A stretch of 32,000 bases of DNA. Source: Geotalea daltonii FRC-32 (GTDB lineage: Bacteria; Desulfobacterota; Desulfuromonadia; Geobacterales; Geobacteraceae). The position numbers were made by a program, and so were the translations under genes. The notes under the pieces were generated by a model that saw only the letters and a program-made list of their open reading frames with translations, was not told the DNA's origin and did no database searches. Below are positions 4,101-32,000 of the stretch, piece by piece. The first letter of the stretch is position 1. Every line of letters begins with the position of its first letter. Location of the stretch: NCBI RefSeq assembly GCF_000022265.1, contig NC_011979.1, positions 1,980,001 to 2,012,000 of the forward strand, written 5' to 3'.

Positions 4101-5642
4101 CTGACTGTCAGCGGAGATGACGTGATCATCTACCGGTACCGGCAGGATGGTGGCGAATTTTCCGGTGAAAGACCGGTCGGCGATCCCATCCAGTTGGCGG
4201 CTCTCGGGGATGGTGGACATGTCGTCGCCGTTATCGGCAGGGACAGTGCCGGAAACTGGCAAACCACCGAATCGACGGTGCAGTGGGTCGTAGACATAAC
4301 CCCGCCGGGTGCTGTTATCAACAGCGTTCCATCGAGCCTAACGAACAGGACTGCGGCCACTTTGGTAGTCGGTGGGGAAGGAGTTACTGCCTACCGTTAC
4401 AAGTTCGACGACGGTGCATATTCCAGCGAGACGCCCGTTTCCACCCCCATAACGCTTGCCTCCCTGACCGAGGGGAACCATACGGTGTCGGTAATCGGCC
4501 GGGACGGCGCCGGAAACTGGCAGGCCGAGGAGAGCGCCGCCACCGCCGCCTGGATGGTGGATTTGACTCCTGCAGTAATGAATGTATCCACCCTTTTGGA
4601 TGGCAACTATACCAACGTGGCAGAGTTGAACATTTCCGGGACCGTCACCGATGCCAGCGGCATTGCGAGTCTTGCCCTTGAATATGCGGCCGAAGGCACT
4701 ACCGGCTCCGGCGAGGTCATACTCGACGGGAAGGGAGCCTTCAGCCACATTGTGACCTTGGCCGTCGGGGCCAATAAGCTGACCCTGACTGCCACTGACC
4801 GTGCGGGTAACCGGACCGGCAATACGAGAACCATCAACTACGATCCGTTTGGGCCAGAGCTTACCATTACGAGCCCTGCAGATAATCTGAAGACCAACCA
4901 GTCATTCGTCAAGATCAACGGGACGACCAACGAAACTGCCACCATCGAGGTCACTACCTACGACCGGAATCAGATACCTGCTTCCCCCCAATTGGCGTCC
5001 ATCAGCGGAGCGGATTTTACCGCCACCGCCAATCTCTTCGAAGGACTCAACACCGTCGTCATCACCGCCCAGGACCAGACCGGGACCAGAAGCTCCTACA
5101 AAAGGACCGTTACCTACGACAACCAGAAACCCAATCTGGCCATTACCGAGCCTGTCCAGGACCTGAGGACCAATCTGCACATCATGACCATCAAGGGAGC
5201 TGTTTCCGATGCCCTCAGTGAGGTTGCCGTGACGGTGAAACAGGATGGCAATGAACCCGAGCCGGTTTTCCTGATTACCGGCGAGTCGGGGCAGTCCTTT
5301 GAGAAGACGGTGACCTTTACGGATAGTAAGGTCTATCATTTTGTGGTGACGGCAACGGATGCCGCGGGGAACGAGACAACTGTCCAGCGGAACATCATCT
5401 TTGCCGCTCCAGCCTGGGGGGATATCAACAGCGACGACAGGGTGGATATCCTCGACGCCCTGATTGCGCTGCAGATTTCCAATGGCATGCTGACCCAGAC
5501 TGATTTTGACCTGATCCGCGGGGATGTTGCTCCATTGATAGACGGCAAACCGGTCTCCGACGGCAGGATCAATGTGGGTGATGCCGTCGTCATTCTCCAG
5601 GCTGCAGTCAACCTGATCACACTTGAGGCACCTCAAAAATAA
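1122..5642 (+). CDS. Very large secreted multi-domain surface protein (cadherin/Ig-like modules, four FN3-like repeats, C-terminal dockerin-type module)
   Basis: ORF track gives 1080..5642. I prefer the in-frame GTG 1122: GGAGGGGG (1110-1117) is 4 nt upstream and the product then starts VNGIKTIIWLYILITFAVFSAVPDIHA (signal peptide). There are four tandem ~110-aa repeats (nt ~2121-3440), each with TPxLxV..DPDGD..TYxFE....YYWR..A.DG. Two ~86-aa repeats (nt ~4040-4570) carry YRY(R/K).DGG..S...P......L..G.H.V.VIGRD.AGNWQ. Further ..TATD.AGN modules follow. The C-terminal GDINSDDRVDILD ... DGRINVGDAV forms paired Ca-binding dockerin-like loops (nt ~5418-5620). Confidence 0.9.
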   Translation: MNGIKTIIWLYILITFAVFSAVPDIHAATPSATPIADVTQNEADIINLDVAGSFSDGDGHTLTFTATGLPEGIGISSAGLISGKLPKVTANTSYRVTVTATDLSNLTADQSFTLTVINSINELPVLARNTVLRINQDAAAGTIGNNYLQLTDENNPGASSLTYTLTAVPVKGTLQKGNSPLAVGATITQADIDAGSISFAPSGSANGADGFSFTYTDDVGETQGPAVFTITIVDNIPPTMNGTAVYVDSTHVEVTFSEEVKGADLPANYTADNGLTITGATPVSANTYRLTTSVHKIGVTYTITGKNIADQAGNGLAANGRTAELTRPATANSAPGTPVLKAPASGEANSAGEVTTLTPSLTVNAVTDPDGDLVTYTFEVSTTGNFATLAVSGEMTIAVDGAVSFAVPTATPLAENTLYYWRVQASDGNLNSGYMPTATFFVNTTAEAPTDPAVSYPAAGTEVPLLTPALTITNSADADQDTLTYDFDLAMDQGFGNGSIVASGTGIPQGTGGSTAWTVPPDKAKDNSRYFWRCRAVDHDGKTSNYVTSSFFINTANDAPTAPTLSAPANGSPNVNEVNILTPTLVVNNATDPDPVKAALTYTFEIDTVNTFDSAGKQVSPAIPEGAGTTAWPVAANLTENTTYYWRAKANDGAADGPWMTTGSFFVTTRNIAPNVPALVSPPAGGEADSVTPVLSVQGSDVNGDTMTYTFEVFTDSSLDSRTRVAYAVDQPANWIVTPPLTDNTRYYWTAMAKDLHGAFSRPMAAQSFTVKNKDSGNIAPNMTITAPGANEPVMNKYSINSYTITWTAADPDSPALIALYHAPDAGGTGGTLIASGLSKNVTSYTWDTSVLQDGSYYVYGVIADGKSQVTAVSAGPIVIDRTLPTPPEVSGVTLTNNPTPTWSWTGKGGGSGTYRYKLDSEDLTTGAIETPDLTFTPASALGGGEHTLYVQERDVAGNWSPSGSYRTNIDLIPPEATISGAPVQATADTSVTLTVSGDDVIIYRYRQDGGEFSGERPVGDPIQLAALGDGGHVVAVIGRDSAGNWQTTESTVQWVVDITPPGAVINSVPSSLTNRTAATLVVGGEGVTAYRYKFDDGAYSSETPVSTPITLASLTEGNHTVSVIGRDGAGNWQAEESAATAAWMVDLTPAVMNVSTLLDGNYTNVAELNISGTVTDASGIASLALEYAAEGTTGSGEVILDGKGAFSHIVTLAVGANKLTLTATDRAGNRTGNTRTINYDPFGPELTITSPADNLKTNQSFVKINGTTNETATIEVTTYDRNQIPASPQLASISGADFTATANLFEGLNTVVITAQDQTGTRSSYKRTVTYDNQKPNLAITEPVQDLRTNLHIMTIKGAVSDALSEVAVTVKQDGNEPEPVFLITGESGQSFEKTVTFTDSKVYHFVVTATDAAGNETTVQRNIIFAAPAWGDINSDDRVDILDALIALQISNGMLTQTDFDLIRGDVAPLIDGKPVSDGRINVGDAVVILQAAVNLITLEAPQK

Positions 5643-5664
5643 AAAGAAAGCGAGTGTTGCAGGT

Positions 5665-6969
5665 ATGAAAGTGAACAGAGCGATATTATCAGGTTTTATC
5701 CTGTGGGTTTCCATTCTTTCCGGTTGCGGTTTCGGCGGTTTCACCGACAATCCCAACAACGATGCAGCATCCGCCAACCAGTCGAAGACCGACACCGATA
5801 CCAAGATAACCGGCGTCGTTGCCAAAGGATTGTTCAAGGATGGTACGGTGCGGGTTTATGCCCTCAACACCGACGGCACCGAAACGTTGCTCAGGACCTC
5901 CAAGATCAACGCGTTCGGCAATTATTCATCGCGCATCAGCGCATTCAAGACCAGTACCACCGGGTCCTATAACGGTATTTACCTGATCAAGGCGACCGGC
6001 TCCTATCTCGACGAATCGACCGGCTCGGTGCTGACCATCGACGAGGGAAATCCCCTCAGAGCCGTTATCGCCAATCCGTCGGGGATCTTTACTGCCTCGG
6101 TGACCCCGCTGACGGAGCTTGCCGCCAGAAAAGTCCTGGCGCTCCAGCAGGGGGGAAAGAGTCTGGCCTCCACCGATGTAACGGCAGCAAATGCATTGAT
6201 TTCGGAGATGTTCAAGGTGGACATTATCGGTACGAAGCCGGTGGAGCCGGATCAGACGCCAGCCGGTATCAAAGCCGATACCGGGCAGGGGCAGAGGGAT
6301 TATACCCTGGCGCTTGCCGCCATCTCACAGATGGCCAAAGCTGATGCAGGGGCACTGGCCGGGACCTTGAATGCCCTGAGCGGCGATATCGCAGACGGCG
6401 CCATGTCAGTGGAGAGTGCCGGCGCCTTTCAGTCAGCGCTGACCGCTTTTCTCGGCTCGGATAAGAATGCCACCGGTATCACCAGCATCAACAATACCAA
6501 CCTGGCCAACGCCGGCGGCACGACAAAAACCATCAAGATTGCCACCTCTGCAAAGGAGGGTGCCAACGCCCTTATCCGGGGCATAACGGTGACGCTGGTG
6601 TTGCCCCCCGGGGTTACTCTGAGAGCGAATTTTGTAACCTCCAAAGAGAAAAAAGAACCCTTGTCTGCGGTTGTTACCCTGCCAAGTACCATGTCCGCGA
6701 ATACCCAATTTCAGTCGGCATATAGTCCACCTGCCTCGGGTGCTCGGGGGATGGTCACCATATCTCTGGGTAATGCATACGGTTTTGCAGCCGGGGAGTT
6801 TTTGATGATCAAATGCGATGTGGCCCCGGGGGCGGTACCAGTGACTTCGGATTTCACCATCTACCGCAATCCCGATAATCCTGAAGATCCGAAGAATTTC
6901 CAGGCGGTAGACGGCAATGGGGCGCTCTTCCCGCCTGAGGTGCTCAGCGCGGAGATAATGCCCGAGTAA
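5665..6969 (+). CDS. Lipoprotein of unknown function, possibly with a cohesin-like C-terminal module
   Basis: ORF track gives 5623..6969. The in-frame ATG 5665 gives MKVNRAILSGFILWVSILSG|C (lipobox LSGC). It starts 22 nt after the upstream stop on the same strand. The C-terminal ~150 aa show a beta-sandwich-like pattern (IKIATSAKEG..IRGITVTLVLPPGVTL..GMVTISLGNAYGFAAGEFLMIKCDVAPG). Confidence 0.85.
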   Translation: MKVNRAILSGFILWVSILSGCGFGGFTDNPNNDAASANQSKTDTDTKITGVVAKGLFKDGTVRVYALNTDGTETLLRTSKINAFGNYSSRISAFKTSTTGSYNGIYLIKATGSYLDESTGSVLTIDEGNPLRAVIANPSGIFTASVTPLTELAARKVLALQQGGKSLASTDVTAANALISEMFKVDIIGTKPVEPDQTPAGIKADTGQGQRDYTLALAAISQMAKADAGALAGTLNALSGDIADGAMSVESAGAFQSALTAFLGSDKNATGITSINNTNLANAGGTTKTIKIATSAKEGANALIRGITVTLVLPPGVTLRANFVTSKEKKEPLSAVVTLPSTMSANTQFQSAYSPPASGARGMVTISLGNAYGFAAGEFLMIKCDVAPGAVPVTSDFTIYRNPDNPEDPKNFQAVDGNGALFPPEVLSAEIMPE

Positions 6970-6987: not shown

Positions 6988-7043
6988 AGACAGGCCGATC
7001 GGGATGTATGGCAAGTCGGGATCGGCCTGTCTTTTGGATTTTT
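6988..7043 (+). terminator. Intrinsic terminator after the surface-protein/lipoprotein pair
   Basis: Perfect 13-bp stem AGACAGGCCGATC (6988-7000) / GATCGGCCTGTCT (7020-7032) followed by TTTGGATTTTT. It begins 19 nt after the stop at 6969. Confidence 0.75.
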
Positions 7044-7099
7044 GGCAGCTGGGGCGATGGGGCGGCTACGGCAGCCGTCCTGGAAACACGGCAGCAATC

Positions 7100-7447
7100 T
7101 TACTTGCTGCCTATGGTGGAAAGAGTAATTCTCCGGAGGCAATTGCCGTTGTCGGTAATGCCCTTGTCTGCTTCGTCCCACAGTTTTATTTTCGATGCCG
7201 CCAGTTCCAGCTTGCCGGAGGACAGGACCCCAATGGGAATGGCAGTCTCAAGGCCATGCCCCACTATCTGCACCAGTTCCTCGTCATTGACGTTCACCTC
7301 CGAAAGGAGGCGGTCACGCCAAGCTTCTTCCTCTGCGGACGGTTGCAGGGTGTAGTTCGGTTGTGTCGAAGGGGCAGGCTCCTCTGCCTTCAGCCAGGCC
7401 GGCATCAGGCAAAGGAAAAGACAGGCAAACGCGGCGGTTTTTTTCAT
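7100..7447 (-). CDS. Small secreted protein (115 aa), no family recognised
   Basis: ORF track gives 7100..7627. The internal ATG 7447 is preceded by AAGGAG (7461..7456, 8-nt spacing) and gives the signal peptide MKKTAAFACLFLCLMPAWLKA. A sigma-54 promoter lies upstream. Confidence 0.7.
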   Translation of the reverse strand: MKKTAAFACLFLCLMPAWLKAEEPAPSTQPNYTLQPSAEEEAWRDRLLSEVNVNDEELVQIVGHGLETAIPIGVLSSGKLELAASKIKLWDEADKGITDNGNCLRRITLSTIGSK

Positions 7448-7530
7448 GTTAGCGGCTCCTTGATGGGATATTTCGCGAAAGGGCACTCCTAAATGGGGAC
7501 GCACTTTTGCTGTCCATTGAAAAAAAGGAG

Positions 7531-7546
7531 AGCAATTCAAATGCCA
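7531..7546 (-). promoter_or_regulatory. Sigma-54 (-24/-12) promoter for the small secreted protein gene
   Basis: Minus strand reads TGGCATTTGAATTGCT. GG and GC have the correct 10-nt separation, and 10 of the 12 specified positions of TGGCACG-N4-TTGCW match. It lies about 85 nt upstream of ATG 7447. Confidence 0.6.
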
Positions 7547-24229: not shown

Positions 24230-24384
24230 CCGGTCGAAATCAACCCAAAACTGCGATAAAATGTAGGATAATTAGGCCAAGCAAATGTGGTGGTGTGGTC
24301 GGGAAATGAAAAGAGGGCTTCTTTTCCTTTGTTTTTTCGTGCTATAACAATCGACCCAGATCACAGAATATACGGGAGTTGTAC

Positions 24385-24672
24385 ATGAAACCAGCCTGGT
24401 TATCCATTCTCTGCCTGCTTATCTTTGCCACTTCAGTATGTGCCGTTTCGGAAGTGATTCCCATGAAGAACAAGGTACGCTTCAACCATTTCAATCATAT
24501 GAATTATACGGAGACCTGTTTCCAATGCCATGTGGAAGAACCGGCGAGAATCAAGGGGTTCGGCAAGGACTGGGGCCATGAGAAATGCAAGGGCTGCCAC
24601 ACCAAAATGACCAGGGGGCCACAGCGGTGCTCCGGGTGCCACAAGTGGAATGAAGCTGCGCCGAATGATTAG
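24385..24672 (+). CDS. Periplasmic triheme cytochrome c7 (PpcA family)
   Basis: ORF track gives 24379..24672. ATG 24385 lies 6 nt after GGGAG. A signal peptide is followed by three CxxCH motifs (CFQCH, CKGCH, CSGCH). The sequence VRFNHFNH...IKGFGKDWGHEKCKGCH..M.RGP..C..CHK aligns by eye with PpcA (VKFPHKAH...IEGFGKEMAHGKGCKGCHEEMKKGPTKCGECHKK). Confidence 0.9.
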   Translation: MKPAWLSILCLLIFATSVCAVSEVIPMKNKVRFNHFNHMNYTETCFQCHVEEPARIKGFGKDWGHEKCKGCHTKMTRGPQRCSGCHKWNEAAPND

Positions 24673-24788: not shown

Positions 24789-24995
24789 ATGGAAGCGGTC
24801 AAAATCTCTCCTAAATTTCAGGTAGTGATCCCCCGCGAAGTCCGGGAAAAGCTGCGCCTGGTTGCCGGCCAACGGATGCAGGTAATCGCCTATGGTAACA
24901 GGATCGAGCTGATTCCGGAGAGGGATATTGCCGATATGCGCGGTTTTTTGAAGGGGCTTGATACTAACGTTGAGCGGGAATCGGACCGCTTATGA
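24789..24995 (+). CDS. vapB: AbrB/SpoVT-fold antitoxin (VapB-like)
   Basis: 68 aa. MEAVKISPKFQVVIPREVREKLRL is the SpoVT/AbrB swapped-hairpin motif. It overlaps the PIN gene by 4 nt. Confidence 0.85.
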   Translation: MEAVKISPKFQVVIPREVREKLRLVAGQRMQVIAYGNRIELIPERDIADMRGFLKGLDTNVERESDRL

Positions 24996-25366
24996 ATGTG
25001 GTGGACTCGTGTGGCTGGCTCGAATATCTCGCCGATGGCCCCAATGCTGAGTCCTTCGCCGGTCCTCTTGCCGATCGGGACTCCATTATTATCCCAACCA
25101 TAACTATTTATGAGGTATTCAAAGTTGTGGCCCGACAGCGTGGTGAAGATGCTGCATTACAGGCTACTGCCCTCATGCAGCAAGGAAAGGTAGTGGAACT
25201 GTCGCCATCACTGGCAATGATCGCTGCACACATCAGCCTTGAGCTGGCACTCCCCATGGCCGACAGTATTATCCTGGCGACAAGCCGATTCCATGGGGCA
25301 GTCCTCTGGACCCAGGACGAGCATTTCAGAACCCTTTCCGAAGTTCGATATTTTCCAAAACGATAA
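24992..25366 (+). CDS. vapC: PIN-domain toxin (VapC-like)
   Basis: 124 aa. The conserved acidic residues are in the expected spacing (VVDS.., ..YEV.., ..MADS.., ..TQDEHF). Confidence 0.85.
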   Translation: MNVVDSCGWLEYLADGPNAESFAGPLADRDSIIIPTITIYEVFKVVARQRGEDAALQATALMQQGKVVELSPSLAMIAAHISLELALPMADSIILATSRFHGAVLWTQDEHFRTLSEVRYFPKR

Positions 25367-25378
25367 TTTCAGGACCGT

Positions 25379-27364
25379 TCACACCTTTACCCGGATCGGC
25401 AGGATTACCGTCGTGATTCCTTCCCACTGCAAGCGGCGCTGAATGGCGAAAGCCGTCTCATTGTGAAGTAGCCGGTGATAGAACTTTTCCAGCCTGAAGG
25501 TGAGTTGTCCGGAAAACACCGCTGAGCGGGGAAACTCCTCCGCAATTTCTCTGCATAATTTTATAGCAGTTTCTACCACGTCGATGCCGGTTGCCATGCG
25601 ATACTCGGCGGCAAAGCCGAGACGCCGGGCCAGATCCACATATTTCTCCAGCCCTTCTCGCACCGAATCCTCCAACGCCTCCATCTCATGCACACCTTTG
25701 AAGGACCCGGAATCGATGACTGCCACCGAGACGAAGACGATATTTTTATAGGTTTCGGGAAAGGTCGTAAGAATTGAGAGCAGGGTGTGGATGCCGAAAC
25801 CATTGTAGGATGTGACGAGTTGGATGGCGGTGGAATCGTTGGCGTTGAGGGGATCGGTATTGACCGGTCCGCTGGTGGGGAAGTCCAGCAGTGTTTCGTC
25901 CAGCTCGGCAATCCCCTTGCGTACCCTGAGATAATGGCTCCTGATCAGGTAGCAGAGCCCGATTACAAGTGACGTGATGACGAGGGTCAGCCAGCCCCCT
26001 TCGGTGAATTTCTCCACCGTAGTTATCACCAGGATGGTGGCACAGAGGGCGAGACCCACCAGGTGAACCGACAGGTGCTGCATCCATTTCGGGTCCTTGT
26101 CCCGTCGTTTAAGATAGAGCCTGGACATGCCGAGCTGGGACAGGGTAAAGGTGACAAAGACATTGATCGAATACATGACCACCAGTGCGGAGACCGAGCC
26201 GCGCGTATAAATGAGGAGGGCAATCGCCGCCCCCCCCATCATGAAGATGCCGTTGCGCATGGTCAGCCGCTCCGACAGGGCGGCAAAGCGGTGGGGGAGC
26301 CATGAATCCACCGCCATGTTGGACATTACCCTGGGGCCTCCGACAAAGCCTGTCTGTGCTGCTACCAATAGAAGCGCACCTTCTGAAAAGATGGTGACGA
26401 AGGCGATTGCCCCTCCCAGGGGCCAATCGGAGAACAGCATGTCGGCGAGAACGGCGTTCAGCGTTTTGCCTTCTATGGGTTTTACTCCTAAAAGTGCATA
26501 GCAGATGAACAGCGCTGCTGCGGTAAAAGCAAGGGATGTGGCCATGTAAAGCATGGTCCGCTTGCCGGTCTTGACTCGCGGCTCGCGCATGATCTGCATG
26601 CTGTTGGAAACTGCTTCGATACCGGTATAGGTCCCGCCCCCCAGGGAGTAGGCGCGGAGGAAAAGGAGGGCAATGCCGACGAAGCCCATGGTGGAAAGAT
26701 CGTAATCCAGTCCGCGCTGGAACTCCTCCGCCAGCGGCCCAAAGCGGTCCCGGTGGGTGATGACCCCGTCCAGCAGCATGGTCAGGTGCATGATGACGAA
26801 GACGATGAAGATTGGAGCCATTACGTAGATGGATTCCTTAAGTCCGCGAATATTGAGTACGATGAGCATCAGGGCCAGGAGGCAGGTAAGCGGCACCTTG
26901 TACTGGTGGAGATGGAGCGGCAGGTAGCTAAAAATTGCGTCGGCACAGGACGCGATGGAAACGGTAATGGTTAAAATGTAATCGACCAGCAGTGCGCAAC
27001 CGGATATTACCCCCGCCCGTTGTCCCAGCATGTGGGTGGCCACCATGTAACCCCCGCCGCCATGGGGGAAGACCTCGATGATGCGGGCATAGGCATAGGA
27101 AATGATGAAAACGGTGATGGCGGTTGCCAGTCCAAGCACGATTGCCAGATAGGTATGGGAACCCAAGGCACGGAAAGCTTCTTCCGGGCCGTAAGAGGAG
27201 GATGACAAGCCATCGGCGCCAAGGCCAATCCAGGCCAGCACCGGAATGAGCGACATCCTGTGGAACAGGGTCGGATCATTGAGCTGTTTAGGGGCGCCTA
27301 CCACGGCCCGCCTGATTTTATTGGCAACGCCCGGCCTTCTCTGATCAGGACTGTTAGGGCTCAC
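25379..27364 (-). CDS. APC-superfamily permease with a cytoplasmic C-terminal domain (KimA-like K+ uptake candidate)
   Basis: GTG 27364 lies 5 nt after AGGAGG. There are about 12 TM segments. GLGADGLSSSSYGPEE and FPHGGGGYMVATHMLGQRAGVISGCALLVDYILTITVSIAS resemble, from memory, B. subtilis KimA (DALSSVAYGTEQ, YPQGGGAYIVSKENLG..LLVDYILTVAVSISA). A soluble tail of about 190 aa follows. Confidence 0.8.
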   Translation of the reverse strand: MSPNSPDQRRPGVANKIRRAVVGAPKQLNDPTLFHRMSLIPVLAWIGLGADGLSSSSYGPEEAFRALGSHTYLAIVLGLATAITVFIISYAYARIIEVFPHGGGGYMVATHMLGQRAGVISGCALLVDYILTITVSIASCADAIFSYLPLHLHQYKVPLTCLLALMLIVLNIRGLKESIYVMAPIFIVFVIMHLTMLLDGVITHRDRFGPLAEEFQRGLDYDLSTMGFVGIALLFLRAYSLGGGTYTGIEAVSNSMQIMREPRVKTGKRTMLYMATSLAFTAAALFICYALLGVKPIEGKTLNAVLADMLFSDWPLGGAIAFVTIFSEGALLLVAAQTGFVGGPRVMSNMAVDSWLPHRFAALSERLTMRNGIFMMGGAAIALLIYTRGSVSALVVMYSINVFVTFTLSQLGMSRLYLKRRDKDPKWMQHLSVHLVGLALCATILVITTVEKFTEGGWLTLVITSLVIGLCYLIRSHYLRVRKGIAELDETLLDFPTSGPVNTDPLNANDSTAIQLVTSYNGFGIHTLLSILTTFPETYKNIVFVSVAVIDSGSFKGVHEMEALEDSVREGLEKYVDLARRLGFAAEYRMATGIDVVETAIKLCREIAEEFPRSAVFSGQLTFRLEKFYHRLLHNETAFAIQRRLQWEGITTVILPIRVKV

Positions 27365-27409
27365 CCCGCCTCCTGGAAGAACTCCATTAGCTTCTGCCCC
27401 CCCCTAACA

Positions 27410-27437
27410 ACTATACGATGCGGCGCATCATTTTCAA
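27410..27437 (-). promoter_or_regulatory. Sigma-70-type promoter for the KimA-like gene
   Basis: Minus strand: TTGAAA (27437..27432), 16-nt spacer, TATAGT (27415..27410). The leader is about 40 nt. Confidence 0.4.
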
Positions 27438-27594
27438 TTGGCCCCTGCCATTGATGGTTTTTATTTCCTTGTTGCACAAAAAATAATCAGCTGTCCCCTG
27501 TTGGCAAAATGCCCGTTTGTCTCCTTATTATTTTAAATTCATTTTTATCCGGTAAGTGATTGAAAATAGATGTGCTGCTTGATGAAAAACAGGA

Positions 27595-27610
27595 TGGCAC
27601 GCCTCGTGCT
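27595..27610 (+). promoter_or_regulatory. Sigma-54 (-24/-12) promoter of the nitrogen module
   Basis: TGGCACGCCTCGTGCT matches 11 of the 12 specified positions of TGGCACG-N4-TTGCW. The GG/GC spacing is correct. Confidence 0.75.
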
Positions 27611-27639
27611 ACCACCATAACAAAACCATAACTAAACAG

Positions 27640-27679
27640 TGCACAAGGTTGTGCAGATTGATGTGACGGCAATGGCGCC
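27640..27679 (+). promoter_or_regulatory. ANTAR-type dual hexaloop hairpins in the leader RNA
   Basis: Hairpin 1 is TGCAC-AAGGTT-GTGCA (27640-27655). Hairpin 2 is GGC-AATGGC-GCC (27668-27679). Both 6-nt loops have A at position 1 and G at position 4. The linker is 12 nt. Hairpin 2 overlaps the 5' arm of the terminator. Confidence 0.55.
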
Positions 27680-27712
27680 TTTCACCTTCCGGTGAGAGGC
27701 GCCTTTTTATTT
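27674..27712 (+). terminator. Strong intrinsic terminator in the leader, 84 nt before the porin start
   Basis: A 13-bp stem GGCGCCTTTCACC / GGTGAGAGGCGCC (one G-U pair) with a TTCC loop, followed by TTTTTATTT. Confidence 0.8.
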
Positions 27713-27795
27713 AAGAACCGGAAAGGGGGCTCACACGTCAACACTTGTTCTACCAGATATTAAAATTTCAGGGATTAACTACAAAGGAGTATGAA

Positions 27796-28961
<1,166 letters not shown>

Positions 28962-28985
28962 GCAATTATAGTTCTGGAGGCTATT

Positions 28986-30467
28986 ATGAAAATCAAACTT
29001 TCTTTAATCAAACTGCTCATGGCTGTGACAATTGTCATGGTGCCAATGGCAGTCCTGGCTGAAGAACCGGCCAAGGGCACTGAGTCAGTGGCAGCTGAGA
29101 CTAAACTTGCACCAGCCCCTTCGGCTTCCGCCGCGGCCCCTGAAGCTGCTGCATCGGCCGCTGCCGCCCCTGTCGAGGCTGCTACGCCTAAACCGGTCGA
29201 TCCGGTGCTCAATACCGGCGACACCGCCTGGATACTTACTTCGGCAGCGCTGGTCCTGTTCATGATCCCAGGACTGGCCTTCTTCTACGGCGGCATGGTC
29301 CGGAGCAAGAACGTTCTCTCCACGCTCATGCATTCCTTCGTCGCCATGGGCATCGTCGGCGTGCAGTGGGCGGTCATCGGCTATTCCCTCTCATTCGGAC
29401 CCGATGCCTTCATGGGGCTCATAGGCAATACCAGCAAGGCATTGCTCAACGGCCTCATCACCTTCAAGGACGGCAATCCGGTTTATACCCTCTTCCAGAA
29501 TGTGGCGACCGAACCGGGCGCCATTCCCGAGTACGTTTTTGCCATGTTCCAGTGCATGTTCGCCATGATCACCGTGGCTCTAATCTCCGGCGCCCTGGCC
29601 GAGAGGATCAAGTTTTCCGCCTACTGCCTCTTCGTCCTGCTCTGGACCACCCTGGTCTATGATCCTCTGGCCCATTGGGTATGGATGGTCGATGGTTGGT
29701 TGTTCAAAAAAGGAGCACTGGACTTTGCCGGCGGTACCGTCGTTCACCTCTCTTCAGGTATCTCCGCCCTGGCAGCGATCATGTTCCTCGGCAAGCGTCA
29801 TGGATTTCCTCAGGAAAGGATGGCCCCCCACAATCTGCCGCTGACCATGCTCGGCGTCGGTATGCTCTGGTTCGGCTGGTATGGCTTCAACGCAGGCTCG
29901 GCCATTGTCGGCGTCAACTGTTCCGATGCGGCAGGCGGCCTGGCCGGTCTCGCCTTTGCCACAACCACCATCGCCCCGGCAGCAGCCGGCCTTTCCTGGA
30001 TGATTGCCGAGTGGATTCATGCCGGAAAACCGTCGGCCCTTGGTTTCGGTTCGGGCGTGGTGGCGGGGCTGGTCGTCATCACCCCGGCAGCCGGTTTCGT
30101 GCAACCCGGTGCGGCCCTGATCTTTGGCCTCGTTGCCGGTGTCGTCTGTTACGGTGGCGTCTTGCTCAAAGCCAGGATGAAATATGACGACTCCCTGGAT
30201 GCCTTCGGCGTTCACGGCATCGGCGGCACCACCGGCGCCATCCTGACCGGCGTCTTTGCCACCGTCGGCGCCACCGGCCTTATGTCGGGCAATTTCAAGC
30301 AGCTTGTGACCCAAATTATTGCCGTAGTGGCGGCAGGCGCCTATGCTTTTATCGTAACCCTGGTCATCGCCTTTGTTCTCGACAAGACTATTGGTCTCAG
30401 GGTCGAAAAAGACGACGAGATCGTCGGACTCGACCAAACCCAGCATTCGGAAAGTGCCTACAACTGA
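28986..30467 (+). CDS. amtB: Ammonium transporter
   Basis: GGAGG lies 5 nt upstream. A signal peptide and an Ala/Pro-rich linker come first, followed by the Amt body (DTAWILTSAALVLFMIPGLAFFYGG, FAGGTVVHLSSG, GFNAGS, DDSLDAFGVHGIGG). Confidence 0.95.
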   Translation: MKIKLSLIKLLMAVTIVMVPMAVLAEEPAKGTESVAAETKLAPAPSASAAAPEAAASAAAAPVEAATPKPVDPVLNTGDTAWILTSAALVLFMIPGLAFFYGGMVRSKNVLSTLMHSFVAMGIVGVQWAVIGYSLSFGPDAFMGLIGNTSKALLNGLITFKDGNPVYTLFQNVATEPGAIPEYVFAMFQCMFAMITVALISGALAERIKFSAYCLFVLLWTTLVYDPLAHWVWMVDGWLFKKGALDFAGGTVVHLSSGISALAAIMFLGKRHGFPQERMAPHNLPLTMLGVGMLWFGWYGFNAGSAIVGVNCSDAAGGLAGLAFATTTIAPAAAGLSWMIAEWIHAGKPSALGFGSGVVAGLVVITPAAGFVQPGAALIFGLVAGVVCYGGVLLKARMKYDDSLDAFGVHGIGGTTGAILTGVFATVGATGLMSGNFKQLVTQIIAVVAAGAYAFIVTLVIAFVLDKTIGLRVEKDDEIVGLDQTQHSESAYN

Positions 30468-30493
30468 TCATCTGCAATCGCACTTGTCATACC

Positions 30494-30528
30494 AGGCCGC
30501 TTCCTTAAGGGGGCGGCCTTTTTTCTTT
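30494..30528 (+). terminator. Intrinsic terminator after amtB
   Basis: An 11-bp stem AGGCCGCTTCC / GGGGGCGGCCT (two G-U pairs) around a TTAA loop, followed by TTTTTCTTT. Confidence 0.8.
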
Positions 30529-30628
30529 GCATGATTTTTGTGCAGAAAGCTGCCTTGTTTTTACGCATCACTCAGCTATGCATAGGGCTTTATACTGATA
30601 ACTAGCTGGAATTCTGTTCAGGTCCTCT

Positions 30629-30644
30629 TGGCACGACTTGTGCC
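30629..30644 (+). promoter_or_regulatory. Second sigma-54 promoter, for the kinase gene
   Basis: TGGCACGACTTGTGCC matches 10 of 12 specified positions. It has the same unusual GTGC at -12 as the 27595 promoter. It lies 41 nt before ATG 30686. Confidence 0.7.
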
Positions 30645-30685
30645 TCGGAAAAGGCATCTAACGCGCCCCGGTTATGGGGGGATAA

Positions 30686-31432
30686 ATGGAAAAAAGTCTG
30701 GGAAAAATAGTTGATGCCAACGGCCTGCTGCTGGACGAGCAGGTTCTGGAACAACTGGCGTTCAACGAAAAGATGGCTGAGCTGGGCAAGCTCTCAACCG
30801 GGTTGGTGCATGAGCTGAATTCTCCCCTGTCGGTGATAGTTTCCGCTGCCCAGATGATCCTGCGCGAAGAGCAGCTTCCCGACTTCGTCAAGGAAATGGT
30901 TGAACGGATCGGAATGGAGGCCCAGCGTTTGTCTCTTTTTACCAGAAGCCTCCTTTCCTTTGCCCGCAGCGACGCCGGTGTCGATTCGGAAGCGGATGTG
31001 AACCTGGTGCTGCAGGAGGTGATGGACTTTCTCAGGTATGAGGCCCGGAAAGACTCCATAATGGTGATCGAAGAAAAAGATTTCGACCTTCCACCCATTG
31101 CTGCCGACGCCAACAAGCTCAAGCAGGTATTCATCAACCTGATCATGAATGCTTTTCAGTCCATGGAAGACGGCGGGACGCTGCTGCTGAAAACCTACGC
31201 TGTCGATGGCCCTTTTGTGGCGGTGGAACTGGCCGATACCGGTAAAGGAATCCCTGTCGGGGCCATAGACCATATTTTCGAGCCCTTTTTCACCACCAAA
31301 GCGGCCAACGAAGGGACCGGCCTTGGCCTCTATATAACCCGTCACATCATCGAGCGCCTTGGCGGTAAAATACAAGTCCAGAGCGTCGTTAACGAGGGTA
31401 CGACGTTCACTCTCCTGTTTCCTCTCCCGTAA
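30686..31432 (+). CDS. Soluble NtrB-like histidine kinase without a sensor domain
   Basis: 248 aa. The H-box is LSTGLVHELNSPLSV, and the N, G1 (DTGKGIP) and G2 (GTGLGL) boxes are present. There is no TM segment, and only about 35 aa precede the DHp domain. Confidence 0.9.
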   Translation: MEKSLGKIVDANGLLLDEQVLEQLAFNEKMAELGKLSTGLVHELNSPLSVIVSAAQMILREEQLPDFVKEMVERIGMEAQRLSLFTRSLLSFARSDAGVDSEADVNLVLQEVMDFLRYEARKDSIMVIEEKDFDLPPIAADANKLKQVFINLIMNAFQSMEDGGTLLLKTYAVDGPFVAVELADTGKGIPVGAIDHIFEPFFTTKAANEGTGLGLYITRHIIERLGGKIQVQSVVNEGTTFTLLFPLP

Positions 31433-31521
31433 TTCCATCCGTTTAGCGTCGATTTTTCTGCTGACCCTTCTCCTTGGGGGAGAAGGTGGCCGATCCCAGC
31501 AGGGTTTTTCCCGTTATTTCT

Positions 31522-31552
31522 GCCGTTCATCTTGCCGATGGACGGCTTTTTT
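31522..31552 (+). terminator. Intrinsic terminator after the kinase gene
   Basis: A 10-bp stem GCCGTTCATC / GATGGACGGC (one G-U pair) followed by TTTTTT. Confidence 0.75.
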
Positions 31553-31557
31553 GTCCC

Positions 31558-31586
31558 TTGATTTATCATTTTTAACGGTTTAGCAT
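31558..31586 (+). promoter_or_regulatory. Sigma-70-type promoter for the IMPase gene
   Basis: TTGATT (31558-31563), 17-nt spacer, TAGCAT (31581-31586). Confidence 0.35.
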
Positions 31587-31620
31587 ACCGCAACTGCCAA
31601 TTCAAATGGAGGAATCGACA

Positions 31621-32000
31621 ATGCAGCAATATCTGGAAACAGCCGTCCGTGCCGCCAGGGCTGCCGGGGCAATGCAGAAGGAGCGGCTTTGGTCCGAGCA
31701 TGACATAGAGTTCAAGGGCGAGATCAACCTGGTGACGGAGGTGGACAAGGCCTGTGAAGACCTGATTGTCCGGACCATCCGCGCCGAGTTCCCCGATCAT
31801 GACATCCTGGCCGAAGAGAATGATTATGCCGCCGTCAACTCCCCATGCAAGTGGATCATCGATCCTTTGGACGGCACCACCAATTATGCCCATGGCTTTC
31901 CCTGGTTCTGCGTCTCCATTGCCCTTGAGATCGAGGGGATTGTCCAAACCGGTGTCGTCTACCACCCGATGATGGGTGAAATGTTCATCGCCATTAAAGG
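31621..32000 (+). CDS. suhB: Inositol monophosphatase family protein (SuhB-like), N-terminal 126 codons; continues past the right edge
   Basis: Not in the ORF track because it runs off the edge. GGAGGA (31608-31613) lies 7 nt before ATG 31621. Hand translation gives MQQYLETAVRAARAAG...INLVTEVDKACEDLIV...ILAEE...KWIIDPLDGTTNYAHGFP, which are the IMPase motifs. Confidence 0.85.
   Translation, partial: MQQYLETAVRAARAAGAMQKERLWSEHDIEFKGEINLVTEVDKACEDLIVRTIRAEFPDHDILAEENDYAAVNSPCKWIIDPLDGTTNYAHGFPWFCVSIALEIEGIVQTGVVYHPMMGEMFIAIK

Follow-up and report, generated by a model that had tools for sequence, protein, structure and literature searches.

Sigma-54 initiation and probable ANTAR-type antitermination in the leader of the barrel-glnK-amtB operon of Geotalea daltonii FRC-32

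The 32-kb window analyzed here (32,000 nucleotides (nt) of Geotalea daltonii FRC-32, contig NC_011979.1, positions 1,980,001 to 2,012,000) contains an operon in which the gene of an outer-membrane β-barrel protein precedes glnK and amtB, which code for a P-II signal protein and an ammonium transporter. The leader between the promoter and the first gene raises the question of what decides, once transcription has started, whether the three genes are reached. Our answer is that this leader very probably imposes two serial checkpoints, which are sigma-54-dependent initiation and antitermination by an ANTAR-domain protein. A first-pass annotation of the window had proposed this combination, and it is supported by the anatomy of the leader, by its conservation, and by a published orthologous system. 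The element as such is already known: it is the published ANTAR antitermination element of the glnK-amtB operon. Its parts are the following:

27595..27610, plus strand: sigma-54 (RpoN) -24/-12 promoter, TGGCAC-GCCTC-GTGCT = TGGCACGCCTCGTGCT, with GG-N10-GC spacing
27640..27655, plus strand: hairpin P1 of the ANTAR target, TGCAC-AAGGTT-GTGCA, with a 5-bp stem and a hexaloop carrying A at position 1 (A1) and G at position 4 (G4)
27668..27679, plus strand: hairpin P2, core of the published GnfR site, GGC-AATGGC-GCC, hexaloop with A1/G4
27663-27666/27682-27685, plus strand: outer helix, which extends P2 in the nascent RNA
27674..27712, plus strand: intrinsic terminator with a 13-bp stem (27674-27686/27691-27703, including one G-U pair), the loop TTCC and a U-tract

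The positions that the first-pass annotation had given for the promoter, the two hairpins, and the 13-bp terminator with its U-tract were confirmed by reading the sequence. The promoter deviates by one mismatch from TGGCAC-N5-TTGCW; a scan of the window with the pattern TGGCACNNNNNKTGCW, allowing for at most one mismatch, gave seven matches, and the only exact one is at 27595. The loops of both hairpins (AAGGTT and AATGGC) have A at position 1 and G at position 4, and P1 and P2 are separated by 12-13 nt, according to where the stems are taken to end. The P1 pattern GCACANNGNNGTGC occurs a single time in the window (0.06 expected); for the P2 core GGCAANGGCGCC there are seven matches with at most one mismatch (1.33 expected), and an exact one only at 27668. 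For the exact forms of the P1, P2, and sigma-54 patterns, the numbers expected by chance are far below one. The terminator reads GGCGCCTTTCACC-TTCC-GGTGAGAGGCGCC at 27674-27703 and is followed by the U-tract TTTTTATTT at 27704-27712. Its stem (-26.8 kcal/mol) was the best one in a terminator scan of 27000-32000. The possibility that this terminator belongs to the upstream gene was rejected, as the latter (25379-27364) is encoded on the minus strand and is transcribed away from the leader.

The hexanucleotide GGCGCC at 27674-27679 is common to the 3' half of P2 and the 5' strand of the terminator, of which it forms the base. Because both folds use these positions, they are mutually exclusive, as had been claimed in the first-pass annotation, and energies were computed for the alternatives: the combination of P1 and terminator gave -33.0 kcal/mol, that of P1 and P2 only -10.4 kcal/mol. 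The former is far more stable, and termination is therefore the default. For the segment 27620-27715 as a whole, RNAfold determined a value of -36.5 kcal/mol (z = -4.9), and none of 200 shuffled sequences was equally stable. As long as the nascent RNA ends short of the terminator's 3' strand, P1 and P2 each form with a computed probability of about 0.97, and the outer helix 27663-27666/27682-27685 occludes a further part of the terminator's 5' strand. RNAfold also pairs A27645 with U27650 within the loop of P1, which creates a tetraloop; this pair is not kept in orthologues, and the hexaloop is the conserved form.

Based on this anatomy, the operon would be controlled as follows. RNA polymerase with sigma-54 would initiate from the -24/-12 promoter at about 27620 (the start is predicted at ~27620-27623), which would require an activator of the NtrC type, GnfM in Geobacter, probably bound to a 17-mer located about 120 nt upstream. 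By default, the 13-bp terminator would fold and transcription would end at ~27705-27712, giving a product of ~90 nt. Under nitrogen limitation, the sensor-less kinase encoded after amtB would activate a GnfR orthologue whose gene is located in another part of the genome, and the phosphorylated ANTAR regulator would bind the hexaloops of P1 and P2 while these emerge from the polymerase. The closed P2 would then sequester GGCGCC (27674-27679), so that the terminator is blocked and read-through into the three genes becomes possible. The binding of phosphorylated GnfR to the P2 sequence, the function of the terminator, and read-through depending on gnfK and gnfR have been shown in the literature for orthologues; for this genome, we infer where transcription starts, which activator is involved, and that a gnfR gene is present.

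The orthologous system was described for Geobacter sulfurreducens by Ueki and Lovley (2010, NAR 38:7485, PMC2995071), and their paper confirms that a GnfK/GnfR cascade, as cited in the first-pass annotation, has been reported for this species. In the homologous Gsul_0938 operon (hypothetical protein, glnK, amtB), the leader contains a terminator-like signal and the conserved sequence CAGGCAANGGCGCC. The REC-ANTAR protein GnfR (GSU2822) binds the conserved sequence in nifH RNA only in the presence of GnfK (GSU0941) and ATP, and deletion of gnfK or gnfR leads to premature termination of nifH transcription and to more of the short nifH product. The RpoN promoters of these Geobacter genes are activated by GnfL/GnfM; gnfK has its own RpoN promoter in G. 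sulfurreducens, and gnfK and gnfR are unlinked (all PMC2995071).

The window shares with these leaders the same operon plus gnfK, an RpoN promoter, a terminator with U-tract, and a copy of GGCAANGGCGCC which overlaps the 5' strand of the terminator; as in the GnfK/GnfR system, a sensor-less kinase gene with its own sigma-54 promoter is located beside amtB. Of the 13 bases specified in the published GnfR site CAGGCAANGGCGCC, 11 are found in ACGGCAATGGCGCC at 27666-27679, including the exact core GGCAANGGCGCC; the two bases 5' of the core are AC and not CA. In most orthologues, the site has the form AGGCAANGGCGCC. PMC2995071 covered the part consisting of P2 and terminator, without P1, and its experiments dealt with the nifH leader, whereas the leader of the window is known from its sequence. 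The locus was also detected by Ramesh et al. (2012, PLoS Genet, PMC3369931), whose Table S2 lists covariance-model matches to the ANTAR target with overlapping terminators in front of 'hypothetical protein; P-II; ammonium transporter' in three genomes: Geobacter sp. FRC-32 (NC_011979.1, 2007634-2007688), G. sulfurreducens (NC_002939.4, 1008412-1008483), and G. uraniireducens (NC_009483.1, 3952988-3952924).

Compared with the dual-hexaloop RNAs recognized by EutV, NasR, and AmiR (PMC3369931; Walshe et al. 2022, NAR, PMC8934654), the leader has the same two short stems with 6-nt loops carrying A1 and G4, and the same overlap of P2 with the terminator; the regulators are likewise response regulators with an ANTAR output domain that are activated by phosphorylation, and nitrogen metabolism is the common theme. 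It differs from other ANTAR targets in that the two hairpins have distinct, near-invariant stems (GCAC/GTGC and GGC/GCC, respectively) and that initiation depends on sigma-54. With the NtrC/sigma-54 control of glnK-amtB in Proteobacteria, the locus shares the enhancer-dependent promoter, an upstream site of the TGC-N11-GCA type, and the link to nitrogen limitation; here, an ANTAR antitermination checkpoint acting after initiation would be added, and an outer-membrane barrel gene comes first.

In order to assess conservation, 91 related loci (labeled with L and a number where they have to be told apart) were gathered: 9 from a genome scan, 80 from metagenomes, and 3 contigs encoding an identical first-gene protein, 2 of them with the whole leader. 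They gave 32 distinct leaders (29 metagenomic), which had been selected by promoter and GnfR site. P1 was identified by its stem only, and its loop was left unconstrained; its loop therefore provides a fair test, whereas the loop positions of P2 were set by the selection pattern and are not an independent one. The 32 leaders have a common layout with fixed spacing, which consists of the promoter, P1, (A)GGCAANGGCGCC, and the terminator. TGGCAY-N5-NTGCT is found at the same position in 32/32 leaders, as is to be read against their choice for promoter and GnfR site. P1 starts 34-46 nt downstream of the base with which the -24 element begins, and its core GCAC-N6-GTGC is present in 30 of the 32. 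Beyond this set, the homologous operon in metagenome-assembled genomes of Nitrospirota likewise has a sigma-54 promoter.

Conservation of A1 and G4 in orthologous loops had been set beforehand as the test that could refute the ANTAR reading. Among 30 orthologous P1 loops, 27 are hexaloops and 3 are heptaloops; the hexaloops have A1 in 25/27, A2 in 23/27, and G4 in 27/27 cases, and positions 3, 5, and 6 are variable. Changes in the P1 stem comprise G-U wobbles (GTAC/GTGC and GCAC/GTGT) and compensatory exchanges, namely ACAC/GTGT in L022 and AGAC/GTCT in L036 and L038, where P1 reads AGAC-AAGGGC-GTCT and P2 reads GGGC-AAAGAC-GCCC. The stem of the terminator covaries over 24 leaders: five pairs are altered on both sides, and none of 500 shuffles reached the covariation score. 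RNAalifold recovers P1 and the terminator. A covariance model trained on 21 metagenomic leaders, none of them from Geotalea, matched 27633-27711 with 61.4 bits (E = 6e-16), and the rest of the 32-kb window scored at most 15 bits. The leader also stays with the 5' end of the operon when genes are reordered, as in L036 and L038 (kinase, leader, glnK, amtB, barrel), and it is likewise found in front of barrel genes that stand alone.

Several observations weigh against two-step control by an ANTAR protein. The stem of P2 comprises just 3 bp in the window. The core stems of P1 and P2 are near-invariant, and their covariation in the main clade is weak, as 33 of 500 shuffles attain a percentage of paired cells as high as the one observed. 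The linker is at or beyond the range of EutV: in eut leaders it comprises 5-12 nt, and a 14-nt linker or one extended by 20 nt abolishes function (PMC3369931, PMC8934654); the window has 12-13 nt, and most orthologues have 13-19 nt, with values of 26-42 nt in five of them. A search of Rfam 15 with the leader gave no match at the gathering threshold. In a sister clade (L019, L027, L030/L031, L046), the same barrel-glnK-amtB-kinase operon with sigma-54 promoter and upstream 17-mer lacks the ANTAR leader; since operon and promoter are the same, the second checkpoint is not obligatory for this operon. Finally, an ANTAR domain (PF03861) was not found in the 32-kb window (Pfam search of 29 open reading frames (ORFs)), and a search with the ANTAR regulator of L040 plus cluster names gave no GnfR homologue labeled as Geotalea among the matches listed.

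The last two points have to be seen in the light of the published system. That the window contains no ANTAR gene was to be expected, since Geobacter has gnfR at an unlinked position. The search with the L040 regulator gave many ANTAR regulators; a few were labeled Geobacteraceae or Geobacter, and most were without an organism name. Homologues of GnfK and GnfR have been reported in G. uraniireducens (PMC2995071), and the genus Geotalea now includes the former Geobacter uraniireducens as well as G. daltonii FRC-32. As no Geotalea-labeled homologue was among the matches listed, the case for a GnfR in Geotalea rests on the literature. In L040, L032, and L024, the gene of a REC-ANTAR response regulator (PF03861, E = 2.6e-23) is situated directly 5' of the leader. 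Taken together with one further case, REC-ANTAR genes adjoin the leader or the barrel gene in uncultured relatives at L040 3024-3590, L032 12-395, L024 2-151, and L080 4908-5477.

With respect to Rfam, sub-threshold matches to the atoC motif, to PyrG, and to the Thr leader were rejected, as all are driven by the terminator; with E-values up to 10, no ANTAR-named family occurred among the sub-threshold matches. The best match, the atoC RNA motif (RF01733), spans the whole leader (27620-27708) and resembles it in having a hairpin and then a terminator; it scored 22.2 bits (E = 0.11) with a gathering threshold of 50, and the leader does not belong to this family.

Two groups of relatives deserve a description of their own. 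The five leaders with long linkers of 26-42 nt are L022, L029, L033, L061, and L066; three of the five have 7-nt P1 loops. If functional, these variants would contradict the strict linker-length rule of EutV, unless the linker folds on itself. The sister clade has a different leader, located about 150 nt 5' of the barrel gene, which is also conserved (…CAACTTCAACAGAACGTGC…GAAGCTTTCATCTGATCACCGTTCAAAATCAACGATGAAAAGGAG) and contains neither the ANTAR hairpins nor the terminator; in this clade, an inverted repeat TTTCATC/GATGAAA abuts the ribosome-binding site.

The first checkpoint requires a binding site for the activator, for which there is one candidate:

27473..27489, no strand assigned: candidate upstream activator site, 17-mer TGCACAAAAAATAATCA, TGC-N11-(G/T)CA, layout as for NtrC/GnfM

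This 17-mer begins 122 nt 5' of the -24 element. Of 35 distinct orthologous promoters, 24 have such a 17-mer at a distance of 101-124 nt 5' of their -24 element, compared with 1.8% of shuffled sequences; this comparison is based on a pattern defined post hoc, after inspection of the data. The footprint of GnfM at gnfK of G. sulfurreducens extends from -131 to -91 (PMC2995071). Judged from sequence and spacing, the 17-mer is a plausible candidate for an enhancer site of the GnfM/NtrC type, the assignment to GnfM being an inference. Sites of the form TGC-N11-(G/T)CA, likewise candidate GnfM/NtrC-type enhancers, lie ~100-125 nt 5' of both sigma-54 promoters of the window, at 27473-27489 and, in front of the kinase gene, at 30528-30544.

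Three other explanations of the leader have been considered. The first one, which we regard as improbable, is that the terminated leader of ~90 nt is a functional small RNA, which titrates the ANTAR protein via P1 (compare EutX/Rli55 for EutV) or acts in trans, besides cis attenuation or replacing it. The surplus of short nifH product in the gnfK and gnfR mutants (Ueki and Lovley, PMC2995071) would fit this idea, and the terminated product is predicted to be stable (P1 plus terminator, -33 kcal/mol), with the hexaloop of P1 still on display. However, the very same fold consumes P2 and leaves half of the dual site, and nothing points to a target in trans. Moreover, the element occurs as a single copy in the 32-kb window, and in every case it heads a co-oriented operon, with which it also moves.

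The second explanation, put forward as an alternative in the first-pass annotation, is that TGCAC-N6-GTGCA (27640-27655) acts at the DNA level, as an operator bound by an NtrC/GnfM-type protein that might, for instance, repress 3' of the start, and not as an RNA hairpin. It is in fact a perfect inverted repeat with NtrC-like half-sites, GnfM is known to repress gdhA by binding over the promoter (PMC2995071), and the near-invariance of the P1 core stem is what one would expect of a protein-DNA site. The details of the conservation disfavor this alternative, which we consider highly improbable. The spacer is conserved asymmetrically with respect to the strands (AANGNN), without mirror-image T's. 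The outer T/A of TGC/GCA is variable, being U-A in 6 of 24 leaders and unpaired in 15 of 24, and the substitutions found are compensatory pairs or G-U wobbles, which correspond to an A-C mismatch on the other strand. In addition, the spacing of P1 relative to P2 and the terminator in the transcript is fixed, and the conserved candidate activator site is another motif, the AT-rich TGC-N11-GCA about 120 nt upstream.

The third explanation, a constitutive attenuator or a non-ANTAR control (metabolite-binding RNA, leader peptide, Rho) with merely incidental hexaloops, could draw on the window lacking an ANTAR gene, on the lack of an Rfam family at threshold, and on the sister clade having the same operon without the leader, but is just as improbable as the operator, because the two AxxG hexaloops and the terminator are the sole conserved RNA features, ANTAR genes adjoin the leader in L040, L032, and L024, and binding of G. 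sulfurreducens GnfR to the P2 sequence has been shown experimentally (PMC2995071). No conserved feature that would support a riboswitch or a leader-peptide model was found among the orthologous leaders; attenuation by a leader peptide was rejected, as there is no conserved ORF, the ATG at 27662 immediately meets a TGA, and the ATG at 27672 hinges on a variable loop base.

Antitermination by an ANTAR protein remains the preferred reading of P1, P2, and the terminator. A further conserved element follows the terminator:

27721..27729, plus strand: purine box GAAAGGGGG, Shine-Dalgarno-like, 8 nt after the U-tract

GAAAGGRGG is found 7-25 nt after the T-run which ends the terminator in 28 of 31 distinct leaders; by that count, the distance in the window is 12 nt. 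The box occupies the same position in L001, L002, and most of L011-L089, and it is distinct from the real ribosome-binding site (ACAAAGGAGTA, 27781-27791). A small ORF behind the box was rejected because, in most leaders, the 16 nt that follow the box contain no start codon. Base pairing would be possible between GAAAGG and the CCUUUU that closes the terminator on its 3' side. It is conceivable, if rather doubtful, that the purine box is a third conserved control element, such as a ribosome standby site used after antitermination, an mRNA-stabilizing site, or a site for another RNA-binding protein. If such a role were true, the operon would have three layers of control and not the two that are published.

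The genes downstream and upstream of the leader and their signals are:

27796..28527, plus strand: first gene, homologue of GSU0938, a 243-residue secreted outer-membrane β-barrel according to AlphaFold2 and Foldseek, syntenic with glnK/amtB
28623..28961, plus strand: glnK, P-II signal protein (Pfam P-II, E = 5.9e-34)
28986..30467, plus strand: amtB, ammonium transporter (Pfam Ammonium_transp, E = 4e-129)
30494-30519: terminator after amtB (terminator scan)
30528-30544: TGC-N11-GCA site 5' of the kinase promoter
30629..30644, plus strand: second sigma-54 promoter TGGCACGACTTGTGCC, 5' of the kinase gene (pattern scan)
30686..31432, plus strand: sensor-less histidine kinase of 248 residues, HisKA and HATPase_c domains with ~32 N-terminal residues ahead of them
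25379-27364, minus strand: divergent permease gene, upstream neighbor of the leader

The first gene has the ribosome-binding site AAAGGAG at 27783-27789, within ACAAAGGAGTA. An in-frame TTG at 27745, which would make the gene longer, was rejected as start, since L001 has a stop codon there. The identity of the protein to its counterparts in Geotalea toluenoxydans and Geotalea sp. SG265 is 97% and 92%, respectively; it was assigned to no Pfam or NCBIfam family. Its AlphaFold2 model (predicted local distance difference test score 72.5) consists of a signal helix and 12 strands, and Foldseek reported a template-modeling score of ~0.5 to 12-strand barrels (intimin/invasin β-domains, NanC, FapF), the best E-values being those of OmpF. 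Hence, of the designation 'porin' used in the first-pass annotation, the 12-strand outer-membrane β-barrel stands, and the identity as a porin is unproven, the protein being unclassified; 'porin-like' is a reasonable, if unproven, description. The barrel gene is linked with glnK/amtB in three gene orders, in Geobacteraceae, Nitrospirota, and Syntrophorhabdus, and is usually located behind a sigma-54 promoter (homologues L003-L009 and L010-L089). The barrel is a candidate for a nitrogen-regulated outer-membrane channel.

The kinase encoded at 30686-31432 directly follows amtB in the same way as GSU0941 follows GSU0940; because of this arrangement, it is, as far as gene order can tell, an orthologue by position of gnfK (GSU0941), whose product is the kinase for the ANTAR regulator GnfR. 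Its synteny is retained in L001, L002, L029, L033, and L061, and an inositol monophosphatase gene follows it in the cluster.

Elsewhere in the window, a near-consensus sigma-54 element, TGGCATTTGAATTGCT, is located at 7531-7546 on the minus strand, with no obvious gene 3' of it on that strand; the ORFs 5623-6969 and 7004-7492 of this region have no Pfam match. Beyond the permease gene, a VapBC-like toxin-antitoxin pair occupies 24789-25366, where a 68-residue antitoxin of the MazE/AbrB type overlaps a 124-residue PIN-domain toxin, and a small cytochrome c-like ORF lies just 5' of this pair, at 24379-24672.

By itself, the finding raises no new question, and what has been added to the published work is small: conservation statistics for P1, the variants with long linkers, the candidate site for the activator, the purine box, and the different leader of a sister clade. 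For the annotation, it means that the leader of ~90 nt should be listed as a cis-regulatory attenuator, the kinase gene after amtB as an orthologue of gnfK, and the first gene as that of a nitrogen-regulated outer-membrane barrel. With regard to the family, the leaders described here indicate that the published Geobacter scheme, in which sigma-54 and GnfM start transcription and the ANTAR system GnfK/GnfR allows its continuation, extends to this Geotalea genome and to many uncultured Geobacteraceae.

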